The notes beneath the pieces were generated by a model. It was not told the DNA's origin and did not search any database. It was given only the letters and a program-made list of their open reading frames with translations. From positions 1 through 37,802 of the forward strand of contig BTQP01000002.1 of assembly GCA_036985935.1 (NCBI GenBank): 37,802 nucleotides of DNA, read 5' to 3'. Within the stretch, counting starts at the first letter, position 1. Every line of letters starts with the position of its first letter. Source of the stretch: Acidimicrobiia bacterium. Its GTDB lineage: Bacteria > Actinomycetota > Acidimicrobiia > Spongiisociales > UBA5794. This document shows positions 1 to 11,855 of the stretch, piece after piece. Position numbers and translations under genes: made by a program.

Positions 1-951
1 GCGATGGCCGAGATAATGGCGGGGAGGGCGACGTCTGTCCAGACGGCCGCGTATCTGGCCGCGCTTGCCACGAAGGGCGAATCAGCGGATGAAATGGCTG
101 GAATGGTCGACTCGATGATGGCTGCCGCGGTCACAGTCGAGATCGACGATGTCGTCGACATCGTCGGAACGGGTGGAGATGGATTCGGCACCTTCAACAT
201 CTCGACGACGGCTGCATTCATTGCAGCGGGTGCGGGTGTGAGGATAGCGAAACACGGTAACCGGGCTGCATCCTCGAAGACAGGATCAGCTGACCTGCTC
301 GAGGCCGCCGGCTTTGATCTCGAGCTCGGACCCGAGGCAGTGGCGGAGATGATCGACGAGACCGGATTCGGGTTCTTTTTCGCTCCGCGGTACCACCCCG
401 CAATGCGACACGCGGCTCCCGTCCGACGTGAACTCGGTGTGAGGACCGTCTTCAATTTCCTTGGTCCGCTGTGCAACCCGGCCTCTGCGCGGATGAGCGT
501 CGGTACGTCGGATCCGCGGATGGCCCAGCTGATGGTCGACGTGCTGAAGGCACGCGGCGTCGACCGCGGATTCGTCGTGTACGGGGAAGAAGGTCTCGAC
601 GAGATCTCGACCGCGGGCCCGTCGCGGATCTTCCGTCTTATGGATGGCGAGGTTACCGAAGCCGAGTTCACGCCAGAGGACTTTGGCATCACCAGGGTGA
701 ATGTCGAGGACCTCGAGGGTGGCGACGTGGCACGCAACCTTGAGATCACGAATGCGATTCTTCGTGGCGAGTTGGGTCCGGCGAGGGATGCGGCGATCGT
801 CAATGCTTCTCCTGCTCTGGTCCTGGCCGGCATCGCCCTGGGATTCGTCGAGGGTGTTCAGTTGGCTACCAAAGCGGTTGATTCGGGTGCGGCGAAGGAC
901 GTGTTCGAGCGTTCCTTAACGAAGAGTCAACAGCTCTCGACATCCGGGTGA
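1..951 (+). CDS. trpD: Anthranilate phosphoribosyltransferase, 5' end truncated by the window edge
   Basis: Frame 1 is open from nt 1. The translation has TrpD hallmarks: VDIVGTGGDG, FNISTTAAFIAAGAG, KHGNRAASSKTGSADLLEA. Confidence 0.9.
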   Translation, partial: AMAEIMAGRATSVQTAAYLAALATKGESADEMAGMVDSMMAAAVTVEIDDVVDIVGTGGDGFGTFNISTTAAFIAAGAGVRIAKHGNRAASSKTGSADLLEAAGFDLELGPEAVAEMIDETGFGFFFAPRYHPAMRHAAPVRRELGVRTVFNFLGPLCNPASARMSVGTSDPRMAQLMVDVLKARGVDRGFVVYGEEGLDEISTAGPSRIFRLMDGEVTEAEFTPEDFGITRVNVEDLEGGDVARNLEITNAILRGELGPARDAAIVNASPALVLAGIALGFVEGVQLATKAVDSGAAKDVFERSLTKSQQLSTSG

Positions 952-981: not shown

Positions 982-1581
982 ATGAGACGCGTCGCCCTCC
1001 TTGTTTCGTTGATGATGGTGGCTGCTGCATGTGCTTCCGGTCCGCAGACGGCAGCGGTTGATGGGTCGGCGAACAGTCCCGCGACGACTACGCCCGGGTC
1101 CTCAGATGAGACGGGAGCCCAGGGGGCTACCCCGGCTCCAGGCGAAGCCGTTGATCTATTTCCCAGGCCGGAGGGGCCAAGCGCACCTGACTTCACTATG
1201 GCCCTGGCATCAGGCGAATCCTTCACCTTGTCGAATGAGCAGAAGCCCGTCTACATGATCTTTTGGGCGGAGTGGTGAAGCGTGTGTCGACGGGAGTTGC
1301 CCGTTGTCGACACGGTCTCGAACGACTACATCGATGAAGTGTCGTTCCTGGCGATCGCCGGTAGGAGCGACCTGGGGAAAACAACCGAAGTCGCGTCCGG
1401 GCTCTTGTCCGACAACGTCAACTGGGGGCTCGACGACAGTGTCTGGGATCTCTACGGCGTACGTGGCCAGCCGACGTCGGTTCTTGTCAGCCAGGGCGTT
1501 GTTGTCGATTTCTGGTTCGGAGCCATCGGTGAGGTCGGGTTACGCGAGCGTCTCGACGCACTCGTTGCGCTGAGCGCATAG
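982..1581 (+). CDS. TlpA/ResA-like thiol:disulfide oxidoreductase lipoprotein with an in-frame TGA (1276-1278) at the first CXXC position; candidate selenoprotein (UxxC)
   Basis: ORFs 982-1278 and 1282-1581 share frame 1 and are separated by one TGA. The read-through gives FWAEW-U-SVC-RRELP, matching VWASW-C-LPC-RSEAP of the paralogue at 2293-2772. The N-terminus has a signal peptide and lipobox (VAAAC). The C-terminal half carries the thioredoxin-fold cis-Pro region (GQPTSVLV). Confidence 0.7.
1284..1313 (+). promoter_or_regulatory. SECIS-like mRNA hairpin immediately downstream of the in-frame TGA
   Basis: Lower stem is 8 perfect bp (1284-1291 GTGTCGAC with 1306-1313 GTCGACAC). There is a 3-nt 3' bulge (1303-1305 GTT) and an upper stem GGG/CCC (1292-1294 with 1300-1302). 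The 5-nt apical loop is AGUUG (1295-1299). The hairpin starts 6 nt after the UGA. Confidence 0.55.
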
Positions 1582-1585
1582 ATCC

Positions 1586-2293
1586 TCAGCCCGTCGACTC
1601 CTTCGTCGTTCGCCTCTTGCTCACGATGGAGGCCACGAACATGGCTGCACCGGCCACAACGCCGGCGCTGTACAGGAGCATTGGCCCGCCCGCGAGGGAG
1701 ATTCGCAGCGGTTCGGTCCCCAGGCGGATGATCGAAGCGCTCAAGAGGGCCAAACCAGCGACAGAACCCGGCGCCGGTCGACCGTACTGCTTCCATAGAG
1801 CGAGGGCGATACTTGCGAGGGCCATACCGATAGCCGCATAGATCTCGACCGGGTGCCGTGTGATCTGGCTGCCCGGAAGCGCTACCGCCCATGGCAGCGA
1901 CGATTCTGCGCCGAGGCACGATCCGGTGGCGAGACACCCCGCATACCAGCCAGCGAGACCCATCAGAGCCGCGGGTGCGATACCGTCCGCGGCAGCGACC
2001 AGCGCATTGCGTGCAAGAAACGAAAACACGAGCAAGGTGCCGATCACCACGGCCACCGTCGAAACCCCGCTGCGCACGAGCATGATCTGGAGCGGCTCCG
2101 TTAGCGGGTTCACGCCGGTCTGGATCATCGATACGATCCTGCCGATGAACAGACCAGCGATTGCGGCTACGAGTCCAGTGTCCCAGATGTCGACCGCACA
2201 GCCTGCAGCGTTCCCTCGTTTCGCCTCCCAGCGGATCATTATCCAGAAACCGAAGACGCCGATCGCTGCGGCACCCAGCAGGCTGAACTCCAT
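1586..2293 (-). CDS. Prolipoprotein diacylglyceryl transferase (Lgt) family membrane protein
   Basis: Polytopic membrane protein with Lgt-like motifs: GRIVSMIQTG (compare GRxGNFxN) and ITRHPVEIYAAIG followed by IIRLGTEPLR (compare RHPxQLYE ... R..EFFR). Its ATG overlaps the upstream TlpA-like stop by 1 nt (TGATG at 2291-2295). Confidence 0.6.
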   Translation of the reverse strand: MEFSLLGAAAIGVFGFWIMIRWEAKRGNAAGCAVDIWDTGLVAAIAGLFIGRIVSMIQTGVNPLTEPLQIMLVRSGVSTVAVVIGTLLVFSFLARNALVAAADGIAPAALMGLAGWYAGCLATGSCLGAESSLPWAVALPGSQITRHPVEIYAAIGMALASIALALWKQYGRPAPGSVAGLALLSASIIRLGTEPLRISLAGGPMLLYSAGVVAGAAMFVASIVSKRRTTKESTG

Positions 2294-2772
2294 CAGCGGT
2301 CGATCTCGTCCAGGAAGCGGGCAAGCGTAGGTTCGTCGATGATCCCGAGGTGCATCTTCACGAGCTGTCCATCGGCGGCGTAGAAGAATGTGATCGGAAC
2401 GCCCGCCGTCGCCCCCATCTCGATGGGTATGCGTCCTGGACGGTCGCTGAGGTGGGTCATGTCGGCCTCTGAATAGAACTCGGCCATGAACTCCCGAGCG
2501 TTCTGTTCGGTGTCCCTGACGTTGAGAGCGATGAACTCGACGTCAGGAGATACCCGGGTCGCCTGGGCGAGCAGCGGGGCCTCGCTCCGGCACGGGAGAC
2601 ACCATGATGCCCAAACGTTTACGACGGTAGGTTGGTCGCCGGTGGTGATCATGGTATTCAACTCGTCGAGTGTGGTTGGTGTCGGTGCATCCGGTAGGGG
2701 ACCGGTTGGAGCAGACGAGCACGCGGCGACAACCAGCGTGAAAGCAGCGAAAAGCATGATCTGGCGGCGCAT
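2293..2772 (-). CDS. TlpA/ResA-like thiol:disulfide oxidoreductase lipoprotein (Cys form, WCLPC)
   Basis: Has a signal peptide and lipobox (LVVAAC), the VVNVWASWCLPCRSEAP motif and a thioredoxin fold. Start placed at ATG 2772 (MRRQIMLF...) because the longer ORF start at 2805 would overlap the upstream gene's stop. ATG 2757 is also possible. Confidence 0.8.
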   Translation of the reverse strand: MRRQIMLFAAFTLVVAACSSAPTGPLPDAPTPTTLDELNTMITTGDQPTVVNVWASWCLPCRSEAPLLAQATRVSPDVEFIALNVRDTEQNAREFMAEFYSEADMTHLSDRPGRIPIEMGATAGVPITFFYAADGQLVKMHLGIIDEPTLARFLDEIDR

Positions 2773-2782
2773 CGGTCGAAGG

Positions 2783-3847
2783 TTAGGAGAGGTGCTTTCC
2801 AACATGTGAGTGAAGGGCCGCGACCAGGCGCTGGTTCTCGATCGGCGATCTCACCGTGAAGCGCAGGAACTCGTTCAGCGGGTGCGCCTCGGGATACGAT
2901 CGCACAACGAGTCCCTCCGTCAGCAGCGCGTCGGCGAGATGTCCCGCGCTCGGTCCTACATGGCACAGGAGAAAGTTCGCTGTAGACGGAATCACGGAGA
3001 TGCCGGCGGCTGAAAGAGCCCTGGCAAACGAGTCGCGTTCCTTCACGGTGGCGCGCACGATTCTTTCCATGCGCTGTGGTTCGCTCAGGGCCTTCTCGGC
3101 AACCAGGTGGGACAGGGTTGAGATCGATCCGGGAGGCCGGATGCGGTCGAGTTCGAGGATGAGGTCTGCGTGGCCGAACGCGAACCCGACACGGATGCCT
3201 GCCAGACCGAATCCCTTGGACATCGTGTGGAGCACGAGAAGGTTCGGATATCGATCTACCCACTGCGCCCAGCGGTCACCGACGAATTCGGCGTACGCCG
3301 CATCGATCACGACGATTCCTTTTGCAGAGGAGATGATCGACTTGATCACTTCGTTGTCGACCCGCTCACCCGTCGGATTGTTCGGTACACACAACCATGT
3401 CACGTCTGACGTCTCGGCGGCCTCCGTGATCTCATCGACCGGGAACATGTCGAATCGTGGCTCGAGAATTGGAACGAACTCGGCGTGATGCTGGACCGTG
3501 GCGATCTCGTACAGCGGATAGGTAGGGACAACAGCACAGGCTTGCCGGCCCGGACCAAGGAACGCCTTTGCGGTGAGGTCGATCAGTTCGTCGATCCCGG
3601 CCCCAGGAACGATGTTGGATGGGTCCGTGTCGAGATACAAAGCTGCCGCGACGCGGAGGGATCGATACGAGGCCCCGGGATATTCGTTCAGATTGCGGGC
3701 GAGCGGCGAGATCATTCCTGTCGCCCATGTCGTGTCGTTTGCCGCGGTGTTGTGGTCGAAGCGGACGATCTGAGACTCGTGCAGGTTGAATCGTTGGGCG
3801 ATTTCCGCCGTCGTTGGCTGCCATTCGTAGGTCGGTTGATCCGTCAC
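2783..3847 (-). CDS. PLP-dependent class I/II aminotransferase (HisC/CobD-like)
   Basis: Motifs VPNNPTG and HTMSKGFGLAGIRVGFAFG (PLP lysine). Length 354 aa. The exact substrate cannot be resolved by eye. Confidence 0.7.
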   Translation of the reverse strand: MTDQPTYEWQPTTAEIAQRFNLHESQIVRFDHNTAANDTTWATGMISPLARNLNEYPGASYRSLRVAAALYLDTDPSNIVPGAGIDELIDLTAKAFLGPGRQACAVVPTYPLYEIATVQHHAEFVPILEPRFDMFPVDEITEAAETSDVTWLCVPNNPTGERVDNEVIKSIISSAKGIVVIDAAYAEFVGDRWAQWVDRYPNLLVLHTMSKGFGLAGIRVGFAFGHADLILELDRIRPPGSISTLSHLVAEKALSEPQRMERIVRATVKERDSFARALSAAGISVIPSTANFLLCHVGPSAGHLADALLTEGLVVRSYPEAHPLNEFLRFTVRSPIENQRLVAALHSHVGKHLS

Positions 3848-9529: not shown

Positions 9530-10678
9530 CTAGTACAGCTCGTATTGACCGTCGATCAGACGCTCGGTTACACCGGCCCAATCACCAAAACAGTCTTCGG
9601 CGATCAGCAGTGCCTCCTCCTCGTCCAGTTGACGGTCCGTCTCGATGTGAACGACCTGGGGCTCGGTGACCGAGTGGCCGATAGAGGAAAGGAGTCGAAT
9701 CGTGACCTCGGATACGTCGGTCTCGGCTATGAGCTTCTGGGTTATGTCGTACCCGATGGCGTGGTAGGTCTTTCCAACGTGCGCTGCGGGGTTCTTTCCT
9801 GCGGCGGCCTCGAGGCTCATCGGGCGGTAGGGGGTGATCAGCCCGCCGAATCGATTACCCCGGCCTACCTGACCGTCGTCGCCTGCCTCAGCGGACGTAC
9901 CGGAGAGTGTGAGGTACACCGAGTCCTCCTGGTCTGCCTGGTTGACCTGAACGGCGACCGTGCGCCCGGCGATCTCGCCGGCCACGCGCGCGGCCTCGAG
10001 CTGCACCCCATCGACAGCAGCGTCGTAGTCTGACCGGTTTTGGACACGGTCGGCAAGGATCGGGCACGCAACGGTGATGGTGATCGTGTCGCCCGTGCGG
10101 GCGCCCATCACCTTTATGTCCCGCCCGACGGGTGCCAGGCTGCGGTAGTACTCCCCATTGAGATGTGCTTCTACGCCGTGGACGGTCGATTCGAGAATGG
10201 ATCGGGGCATCGAGACTGCGGCGAAGGACGTGTCGTTTGCCAGCGGTGCAACGGTTTCAGCGTGGACGACGGCTGCCAGATCCGCCGAGGAACGGTTGAG
10301 CCAGACCTCGACGTCGAACGCCTCAGGCTGGGCCTCAGGGAGTAACTCCATCAGCCGAGCGTGGTACTGCACGGCGAGTGCCTCTGGGTCGGGTCGCCAA
10401 TCGAAGCCAAATGTCGCTTTACCGACCAGTACGAGCCTGGACGGCTTCGTGTGGGTGCCACCACCGAATCCGATATCGACCGAGCCAGCAGCGAGAATCG
10501 CCTTGTCCACATTGAAGTGGCGAACGGCACCCGTGTTCTTCTCATAGTCCCTTGCCAGTTGCCTCGCGAGTTCCTCTGCGAGACGGTCGCATATCGTGTC
10601 CGGGTGGCCGATGCCCTTTCGTTCAACGAACTCCACAGGGGGGTTGTAGGGGGCGCGACTCGTGAGCAAGAGGTTCAT
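9530..10678 (-). CDS. Archaeal-type methionine adenosyltransferase (SAM synthetase, PF01941-like)
   Basis: ERKGIGHPDTICD, PLANDTSFAV, GRDIKVMG, YLTLSGTSAEAGDDGQVGRGNRFGGLITPYRPMSLEAAAGKNPAAHVGK match my memory of the Methanocaldococcus MAT sequence. Start set at ATG 10678 (MNLLLTS...). The longer ORF to 10864 would run across the divergent gene's start. Confidence 0.8.
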   Translation of the reverse strand: MNLLLTSRAPYNPPVEFVERKGIGHPDTICDRLAEELARQLARDYEKNTGAVRHFNVDKAILAAGSVDIGFGGGTHTKPSRLVLVGKATFGFDWRPDPEALAVQYHARLMELLPEAQPEAFDVEVWLNRSSADLAAVVHAETVAPLANDTSFAAVSMPRSILESTVHGVEAHLNGEYYRSLAPVGRDIKVMGARTGDTITITVACPILADRVQNRSDYDAAVDGVQLEAARVAGEIAGRTVAVQVNQADQEDSVYLTLSGTSAEAGDDGQVGRGNRFGGLITPYRPMSLEAAAGKNPAAHVGKTYHAIGYDITQKLIAETDVSEVTIRLLSSIGHSVTEPQVVHIETDRQLDEEEALLIAEDCFGDWAGVTERLIDGQYELY

Positions 10679-10811
10679 GTTGTTCCTGTGACATCGACGT
10701 TTGACGGCGCATGGTAGTGGGCGGGCGACACCGAGGTACCGAGACGAAACACGCACCTCGCTGTGGCGAGCGTCGTGCTGCCCTGGGCTGCTGACATCTA
10801 CACTCAACGAC

Positions 10812-11855
10812 ATGGAGGGATTCTCAACTCGAGCGTTGCACGCCGACGATGGCATCAGCGACACACCGGACGTAGCACCACCGATCAGCGTCAGTACAAC
10901 ATACGAGGAAGGAACCGGTCGGCGGTATCGGCGATCGAGTCACTCCACGACCGAACGCCTTGAAGCCGTGCTCGGCTCTCTCGATGGCGGGCACGCCACG
11001 GCGTATGCATCCGGATTGGCCGCTGCTTCAGGGGTGCTTGATCACATCAATCCCGGGAGGGTCTCGATTCCTGACGACGTGTACCACGGTGTGCGCCAAT
11101 TGATCGAGAGCCGCCAGGCGCGTGGACAGCTTGTCGTATCGCGTACGGGAGAGCTCGAGCGTGGAGACCTCTGGTGGGTTGAAACGCCTTCGAACCCGAA
11201 ATGCCTGATCACCGACCTTGTGGAGGTCGCACGCCTTGCTTCAGAGCGTGGGATCATCACCGTGTGCGATTCGACGTTTGCGACTCCCGTCCAGATGCGA
11301 CCGCTCAGTCTCGGCGTCGATGTCGTCCTGCATTCGGTGACCAAGTTCATTTCAGGGCATTCCGACGCGTTGGGCGGGGCGCTCATCACGAGCTCCAACT
11401 CGATGGCGGAGGAACTACGGACCGAAAGAACGCTGAGCGGAGCAGTACCTGGCGCGCTCGACGTGTGGCTTGCCCTACGAGGCGTAAGGACGCTCGACCT
11501 TCGTGTTCGTCGCGCAAGCGAATCCGCTCTCGCCATCGCGAACTGGTTCTCGGCCCGAGGTGTGGCGACGTGGCATCCTGGACTGAGCGGGCATCCCGGC
11601 CATGCGATCGCTGCGGAACAGATGGACGGTTTCGGATCCATGATGTCCATAGATCTCGGATCCGCCGACGCTGCTCACCTATTCGTCACGAATCTTGCCG
11701 TTTTCACGAACGCCACGTCCCTCGGAAGTGTCGAGTCACTCGCCGAACACAGGCTCATCAGTGACCCACTCATCGAACCAGGTCTCGTGCGACTTTCGGT
11801 CGGCATCGAGGACGTTTCTGACCTTATCGCCGACATAGATCAGGCTCTGGGCTGA
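10812..11855 (+). CDS. Cys/Met-metabolism PLP enzyme (cystathionine gamma-synthase/lyase family)
   Basis: FSTRALHADD..PPISVSTTY and HSVTKFISGHSDALGG (PLP lysine). Start at ATG 10812 (MEGFSTRAL). Confidence 0.75.
   Translation: MEGFSTRALHADDGISDTPDVAPPISVSTTYEEGTGRRYRRSSHSTTERLEAVLGSLDGGHATAYASGLAAASGVLDHINPGRVSIPDDVYHGVRQLIESRQARGQLVVSRTGELERGDLWWVETPSNPKCLITDLVEVARLASERGIITVCDSTFATPVQMRPLSLGVDVVLHSVTKFISGHSDALGGALITSSNSMAEELRTERTLSGAVPGALDVWLALRGVRTLDLRVRRASESALAIANWFSARGVATWHPGLSGHPGHAIAAEQMDGFGSMMSIDLGSADAAHLFVTNLAVFTNATSLGSVESLAEHRLISDPLIEPGLVRLSVGIEDVSDLIADIDQALG

Follow-up and report, generated by a model that had tools for sequence, protein, structure and literature searches.

Selenoproteins of the thioredoxin fold, in which selenocysteine (Sec, U) takes the first position of a UxxC active site, have been predicted in bacteria since 2005, when "thiol-disulfide isomerase-like" (UxxC) and "Prx-like" families were defined in the Sargasso Sea metagenome, TlpA-like proteins included (Zhang, Fomenko and Gladyshev 2005, PMC1088965). 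The thiol-disulfide isomerase-like family is listed in PMC9312934 and PMC13188914 and is assigned cd02966 in later reviews; the 2026 review adds a "thiol:disulfide interchange protein" and a TlpA family of the UGC type, and its examples of the Prx-like thiol:disulfide oxidoreductase and of the thiol:disulfide interchange protein are given with PF00578 and PF13098 and the accessions WP_010940744.1 and WP_011366075.1 (PMC13188914). Here we consider a gene at positions 982-1581 of the forward strand in a 37,802-nucleotide stretch of DNA from an Acidimicrobiia bacterium (contig BTQP01000002.1; this whole stretch is referred to below as the window). A first-pass annotation made from the sequence alone had proposed this gene as a UxxC TlpA-like lipoprotein with a selenocysteine insertion sequence (SECIS)-like hairpin, and had rightly added that thioredoxin-fold UxxC selenoproteins are already known in bacteria. 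Our follow-up points the same way: 982-1581 is very probably a single gene whose product is exported and lipid-anchored, a thiol-disulfide oxidoreductase of the TlpA/ResA type with a Sec nucleophile (U99-S-V-C102), a reading supported by a conserved TGA, Cys homologues, in-frame conservation on both sides of the TGA, a conserved and covarying hairpin, and Cys forms in which that hairpin is missing.

Like the window protein, members of the Sargasso Sea thiol-disulfide isomerase-like family combine a TlpA-type thioredoxin fold, Sec first in UxxC, a hairpin 3' of the UGA and the existence of Cys homologues. Pairwise comparison of the window protein with AACY01523057 from that family (...FWAPWuGGCNRE...GVSSQP) gives 28% identity at E = 8e-12, which would place the two in the same superfamily and with the same active-site design, but not in the same orthologous group. 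The motif WAEWUxxCRRELP of the window family is absent from the Sargasso supplement, and the SECIS candidates that we could discern in two of the Sargasso genes are hairpins with a GGUC loop at a greater distance from the UGA, whereas the window family has an AGUUG loop on a hairpin at +10. Unlike the Sargasso family, the window family is one of lipoproteins, occurs in genomes labelled Acidimicrobiia or Actinomycetota, and occupies a fixed trpD-linked locus. To the Prx-like and thiol:disulfide interchange selenoproteins the likeness is by description only, consisting of a PF00578 match and a UxxC at the thioredoxin-type position.

Among proteins that use CxxC, Bacillus subtilis ResA, Mycobacterium tuberculosis DsbF and DsbE (MPT53), and Streptococcus pneumoniae Etrx1 and Etrx2 have their fold and active-site position in common with the window protein, whose nucleophile is instead encoded by UGA; its predicted surface lipoprotein character and long N-terminal linker are further features that recall Etrx1 and Etrx2. 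Foldseek matches of a modelled Cys homologue to this CxxC group score TM 0.78-0.90, target-normalised. On the RNA side, the SECIS elements of Escherichia coli fdhF and fdnG resemble the window hairpin in being stem-loops that follow the UGA directly within the coding sequence and have G and U in a small apical loop. In E. coli, the minimal SECIS consists of an upper stem-loop of 17 nt, with 11 nt separating it from the UGA. The window hairpin differs in having a loop AGUUG rather than GGUC and in lacking a conserved bulged U, and its binding by SelB is only predicted.

In public data the family is present in pieces. We searched a collection of 5.8 billion protein clusters, where a query with the single sequence gave 2 matches and a profile search revealed the family. 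Its Cys forms are full-length there and, where named, are called "TlpA disulfide reductase family protein" or "thiol-disulfide isomerase/thioredoxin", and its Sec forms are C-terminal fragments of 94-101 aa that are unnamed or called "hypothetical protein". Among the 120 matches listed from the profile search of this collection, none is named a selenoprotein. We found no paper describing the window family in the literature, and no survey of Acidimicrobiia selenoproteomes besides a preprint on Actinomarina. The window family is apparently an unannotated addition to the known UxxC thioredoxin-fold selenoproteins.

The reading frame and its conserved TGA

The open reading frames (ORFs) 982-1278 and 1282-1581 of the forward strand belong to a single 199-codon frame, broken only by the TGA at 1276-1278. 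From ATG 982 to this TGA there are 98 codons, and the same frame resumes at 1279 and runs to TAG 1579-1581. That the two ORFs are co-framed and split by the TGA alone had already been noted, and re-reading of the sequence agrees. The read-through product of 199 residues contains ...KPVYMIFWAEW-[TGA]-SVC-RRELPVVD..., followed by a GQPTSV loop. The features of the gene are as follows.

982..1581, forward strand: predicted TlpA/ResA-like thioredoxin-fold selenoprotein, 199 codons plus TAG 1579-1581 (one frame; domain matches spanning the TGA; tblastn coverage of residues 1-199 in many loci)
982..1032, forward strand: lipoprotein signal peptide MRRVALLVSLMMVAAAC, with lipobox Cys17 at codon 1030-1032 (read from the sequence)
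1276..1278, forward strand: in-frame TGA, predicted Sec codon, residue 99, first position of UxxC (U99-S-V-C102) (conservation across loci)
1285..1287, forward strand: TGT, resolving Cys102 of UxxC (invariant in all homologues)
1289..1305, forward strand: 17-nt SECIS-like hairpin, stem 1289-1294/1300-1305 and apical loop AGUUG 1295-1299 (fold, register pairing, covariation, codon bias)
1468..1473, forward strand: Gln163-Pro164, thioredoxin-fold cis-Pro loop (GQPTSV) (Q and P invariant in family alignments A1, A3 and A4; aligned to the R-S-I-P loop of Etrx2)

Relatives of the gene were gathered in one scan of species-representative genomes, which yielded 231 confirmed relatives; we kept the best 80. 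The 80 loci belong to distinct genomes, and almost all of these have the label Acidimicrobiia or Actinomycetota (a few have another taxon label or none). At the protein level, their best segments are 41-65% identical to the query. The codon aligned to 1276-1278 is TGA in 78 of the 80 loci, with TGC in one (L071) and TGT in another (L073). The TGA is thus conserved across the class, at what the first-pass annotation, working from a single Cys-type paralogue, had taken to be the nucleophilic Cys of a CXXC motif. In the Sec-form genes the internal stop is TGA in 80/80 and never TAA or TAG, and the terminal stops of the same genes are TAG (40), TGA (33) and TAA (5).

Conservation in frame persists past the TGA. 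Matches of tblastn to the read-through protein cover residues 1-199 in many loci, and invariant residues flank the TGA on both sides, among them W98, C102, R104, E105, P107, Q163 and P164; the family invariants can be written WAEW-U-xxC-x-RE-x-P, WG, QP and W-x-G. An ATG, GTG or TTG occurs within 6 codons past the TGA in only 6/80 Sec-form genes, so the GTG at window position 1282, from which the ORF 1282-1581 originates, is incidental and the second half is not an independent gene.

An assembly error at 1276-1278 appears unlikely, since other species keep the TGA and an identical 98-aa N-terminal fragment is encoded by run DRR500112 in its separate assembly by Logan. In that Logan assembly the gene caller output two genes, of 98 and 99 aa; that ORF callers would split the gene had been anticipated, and the fragments in the protein collection bear it out. 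The two called halves have no Pfam match on record. In this genome TGA has its usual meaning of stop, since it ends trpD (949-951), and it likewise ends 424/633 long open frames in the related loci.

When the stop is replaced by Cys, the read-through protein matches the Pfam families Thioredoxin (PF00085), Redoxin (PF08534) and AhpC-TSA (PF00578), and a family profile built from three sequences and searched against the PDB matches Etrx1/2, ResA and M. tuberculosis DsbF with E ~1e-13 to 1e-15. Both sets of matches run across the TGA. The structure modelled was that of P0007, a 58%-identical Cys homologue, for which AlphaFold gives a mean predicted local distance difference test (pLDDT) score of 86, rising above 95 across the domain. 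In this model the Cys/Sec position follows strand 72-77 and precedes helix 82-98, at the N-terminal end of helix alpha-1. A Foldseek search with the model returned M. tuberculosis DsbF, B. subtilis ResA, Chlorobium DsbE, CcmG and pneumococcal Etrx1/2 at template modelling (TM) scores of 0.74-0.90, target-normalised. On the basis of the Pfam and PDB matches, the P0007 model and its Foldseek matches, the domain of the 982-1581 product is assigned to the TlpA/ResA/CcmG-type extracytoplasmic thiol-disulfide oxidoreductases. We take cd02966 to be the corresponding TlpA-like (TlpA/ResA/CcmG-like oxidoreductases) entry.

One metagenome-assembled genome (MAG044) contains three copies of the TGA-containing gene, two in tandem on one contig (L015:2737 and L015:3406) and one elsewhere (L010:1445). 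In the tandem pair, the upstream copy has a degraded hairpin (GGGAGTTGTCC).

Alternation with cysteine and the hairpin past the TGA

The first-pass annotation had named, as a check on its proposal, whether homologues carry Cys or TGA at this codon and whether the hairpin co-varies; we find that TGA and Cys codons alternate, that Sec forms keep the hairpin, and that it is absent from four Cys forms. The Cys-form sequences (n=91) are mostly full-length database proteins, and 84/91 have CPxC. In the Sec forms the residue after U is S (33), P (20) or G (19). This difference, S/P/G after U versus P after C, suggests that Sec and Cys forms tune the active-site dipeptide differently. A rough neighbour-joining tree of 77 Sec forms, 91 Cys forms and 1 mis-translated form implies at least 9 switches between Sec and Cys. 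The two loci with Cys codons, L071 and L073, both keep trpD upstream and are therefore positional orthologues of the Sec-form gene.

In the four Cys-form genes examined the hairpin is absent (4/4), with only 2-3 of the 6 pairs left. The Cys form in L083 is instructive in that it encodes the same peptide, CRRELPVVD, with the codons CGC CGC GAG CTC CCG GTG and without the hairpin. As a separate observation, at L083:8039-12594 the Cys-form homologue P0002 lies near a System I cytochrome c maturation cluster with ccmE, ccmF, ccmH and a second TlpA-like gene, a context unlike the trpD-linked Sec locus.

The hairpin of the window begins 10 nt past the TGA and has the stem GACGGG/CCCGUU. The window also contains a seventh pair, C1288-G1306, and outer pairs of 1281-1286 with 1308/1310-1314, which are not conserved. 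Because the 41 nt at 1276-1316 fold at -18.7 kcal/mol (z = -2.84, a value reached by 1/200 shuffles) but a wider stretch does not stand out, as discussed below, the single sequence is weak evidence and the comparative data carry the argument.

For these, 54 nt around the TGA were aligned without gaps in all 80 Sec forms (alignment A2). The stem is contiguous, with 6-7 bp; its columns 19/20-25 with 31-36/37, corresponding to window positions 1288/1289-1294 with 1300-1305/1306, are paired in 89.5% of cells, as against 39-69% in slid-register controls, and the covariation score of the alignment was matched by 0/500 shuffles. RNAalifold recovered the same stem. Pair 20-36 is GC in 57 sequences, AU in 14, CG in 2, GU in 2 and broken in 4, and of its two bases one is non-synonymous, changing Arg to Gln or the reverse, and the other is synonymous, at the third position of a Val codon. 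Codon choice is also strongly skewed within the hairpin relative to the background elsewhere in the same genes:

Arg, fifth codon past the TGA: CGG in 75/75 (background 26%)
Leu, seventh codon past the TGA: TTG in 56 and TTA in 8 of 80 (background 12% and 1%)
Pro, eighth codon past the TGA: CCC in 74/79 (background 32%)

By this comparison, the synonymous sites inside the hairpin are under selection at the RNA level.

The fold drawn in the first-pass annotation was partly right. Its AGUUG loop and GGG/CCC upper stem are found family-wide, and its 8-bp lower stem with a 3-nt bulge did not hold up: it is an alternative fold of the window sequence that is paired in 66.8% of cells across the family, with no excess over shuffles. 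We also considered, and rejected as a family-wide element, a second hairpin 34-47 nt past the UGA, which is paired in 54% of cells overall, is confined to a subclade and is absent from the window (1308-1323). In that subclade (e.g., L031, L040, L059, L067, L068 and L074) it is a perfect hairpin of the form GAUGC-GGUC/AGUU-GCAUC at A2 columns 39-54, encodes D-A-V-A-S, and co-occurs with loci in which the first hairpin is shifted (L053, L067 and L079). Similar hairpins with a GGUC loop follow the UGA of two TlpA-like selenoprotein genes from the Sargasso Sea, and the second hairpin may serve as a SECIS in place of the first or alongside it.

A recurrent GGGAGTTACCC match in the flanks, at L032:242-601 (reverse strand), at L052:2551-2942 (forward strand) and at similar positions in L040, L055, L058 and L076, was discarded as a SECIS-like element, as in L032 and L052 it falls inside an RNase P RNA gene (Rfam, ~285 and 282 bits). 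No other convincing gene with a TGA and a hairpin was found in the window and flanks, nor any other convincing interrupted ORF in the window.

Proposed decoding of the TGA

If 982-1581 is a selenoprotein gene, UGA 1276-1278 would be decoded as Sec and not as a stop, and the 17-nt hairpin, starting 10 nt past the UGA, would serve as a bacterial SECIS. SelB-GTP-Sec-tRNA(Sec) would bind to it and so be brought to the ribosome as the UGA enters the A site, with insertion of Sec99. The 199-residue product would then be exported and lipidated on Cys17, and a selenenylsulfide/selenol-thiol couple (U99 with Cys102) would replace the disulfide/dithiol couple in extracytoplasmic thiol-disulfide exchange. 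The dependence on SelB and tRNA-Sec and the actual incorporation of selenium are what the comparative pattern predicts, and lipidation, the direction of the redox reaction, its substrates and the enzyme's function are likewise inferred.

Several observations weigh against this proposal. The Sec machinery was sought by ARAGORN on the window and 81 loci, by tblastn searches of the window and 80 loci in which the E. coli proteins SelA, SelB and SelD were the queries, and by scanning ~30 window ORFs with Pfam and NCBIfam; selA, selB, selD and tRNA-Sec were found neither in the 37.8-kb window nor in ~800 kb of homologous flanks, a search that covers the syntenic region only. No Rfam SECIS model reaches its gathering score, and at E <= 10 none matches within 1200-1400. 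The wider 66-nt stretch around the hairpin folds unremarkably (z = -0.75), and judged from the window sequence by itself the hairpin stands out only moderately. In favour of the proposal, the one literature source for Sec decoding in the class that we found, a 2026 preprint, reports selA, selB, selC and selD from all 84 complete genomes of Actinomarina, which belongs to the class Acidimicrobiia, and adds that the Rfam SECIS models fail there too (bioRxiv 10.64898/2026.04.03.716425).

The alternative that survives best, though we consider it quite improbable, is that the UGA is recoded without Sec, either by read-through with a near-cognate tRNA (Trp, Cys or Arg) stimulated by the hairpin or through a non-standard meaning of UGA. 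The failure to find selABCD in the searched syntenic region would fit such recoding, as would one JGI gene call, P0003 (L088:99-716), whose protein runs the full length and has Trp where Sec is expected (FWAEWWGSC). The DNA codon of P0003 is TGA, however, and its Trp therefore comes from the caller's code table, in which TGA = Trp. A general reassignment of UGA is hard to reconcile with TGA being the commonest true stop in these loci (424/633 long frames) and the stop of trpD in the window. Among homologues the position alternates only with Cys, which is the classical signature of Sec, and Trp or Arg as the nucleophile would leave the enzyme inactive. In addition, the size of the hairpin and its distance from the UGA fit a SelB-type element of the minimal E. 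coli kind.

A conserved split gene, in which an N-terminal lipoprotein piece and a C-terminal half with its own start near the TGA are translated separately and come together as a thioredoxin fold, strikes us as scarcely credible. The window does have a GTG 3 nt past the TGA, and the conserved TTG (the Leu at the seventh codon past the TGA) could in principle serve as a start. But the scarcity of start codons within 6 codons of the TGA (6/80 genes) speaks against a restart, the stop is exclusively TGA, and the break falls exactly on the catalytic residue, where it would remove the nucleophile. Such a C-terminal half would also have no signal peptide for export, and the Cys-form relatives, including the syntenic L071 and L073, are uninterrupted.

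That the TGA is a genuine stop, whether as a strain-specific nonsense mutation, a pseudogene or an assembly or sequencing error, is what gene callers assume in giving two fragments and would agree with the lack of Sec machinery in the window, but its probability is negligible given a TGA at this codon in 78/80 loci from distinct species-level genomes, halves that both stay conserved in frame, the identical fragment in a separate assembly, an internal stop that is never TAA or TAG where the terminal stops are mixed, and loci whose 42-65% best-segment identity to the query excludes copies of one contaminant.

Export and the trpD-linked locus

The selenoprotein predicted at 982-1581 begins with a signal peptide, MRRVALLVSLMMVAAAC17, with the lipobox AAAC17, and continues with a Ser/Thr/Pro/Ala-rich linker to about residue 65. 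The lipobox is conserved: a lipobox-like motif occurs within the first 45 residues in 65/82 complete homologues, a count that depends on a crude choice of start codons. No CcdA/DsbD-type electron donor, Msr or Sco was seen among the ~30 window ORFs scanned with Pfam and NCBIfam.

The gene order common to the loci is trpD, the Sec-form gene, an Lgt-like gene and a Cys-type TlpA paralogue. In the window the neighbours are the following.

4..951, forward strand: trpD (anthranilate phosphoribosyltransferase), stop TGA 949-951 (ORF; name from reading of the sequence; upstream homologue in 66/80 loci)
1586..2293, reverse strand: Lgt-like (prolipoprotein diacylglyceryl transferase) 235-aa membrane protein, convergent (weak NCBIfam Lgt match; syntenic in 47/80 loci)
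2293..2805, reverse strand: Cys-type TlpA/DsbE-like lipoprotein paralogue (WCLPC), ...VWASWCLPCRSEAPLL (ORF, Pfam, NCBIfam)

The product of 1586-2293 matches the NCBIfam Lgt models at E = 8e-8, far below their cut-offs, and PF01790 is on record for an identical protein. In 47/80 loci this Lgt-like gene lies between two lipoprotein TlpA-like genes, and its product may be either the housekeeping Lgt or a specialised partner. The Cys-type paralogue, whose motif had been quoted correctly beforehand (2293-2805 on the reverse strand reads ...VVNVWASWCLPCRSEAPLL), has a tblastn match in 55 loci and is syntenic in ~46/80, with some of the matches being the Sec gene itself or lying elsewhere. Further along the window, 9530-10864 on the reverse strand encodes a methionine adenosyltransferase that matches PRK04439-type models at 343 bits against a 435-bit cut-off; these models are presumably of the archaeal-type enzyme and not of bacterial MetK.

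A broader proposal goes beyond the gene of the window: an uncatalogued selenolipoprotein may extend across much of Acidimicrobiia, with its own minimal, lineage-specific SECIS, a 17-nt AGUUG-loop hairpin 10 nt from the UGA that the Rfam models miss, in a fixed module with the Lgt-like protein and the Cys-type TlpA. We see the chances of this wider reading as evenly balanced. The biochemistry of UxxC thioredoxin-fold proteins has been predicted since 2005 and is not conceptually new; the finding would come as no surprise to a selenoprotein specialist. What is offered here is a comparatively validated selenoprotein gene that annotation pipelines have overlooked, together with a compact, well-defined putative SECIS from actinobacteria on which selenoprotein predictors could be trained and read-through reporters built. 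With re-annotation, dozens of Acidimicrobiia genomes would gain a conserved selenoprotein, which would imply that Sec decoding is common in these abundant, mostly uncultured bacteria. If the lineage-specific selenolipoprotein is real, then Sec decoding would extend far past Actinomarina and be widespread in the class, and selenium redox chemistry would take place at the cell surface of abundant uncultured actinobacteria.

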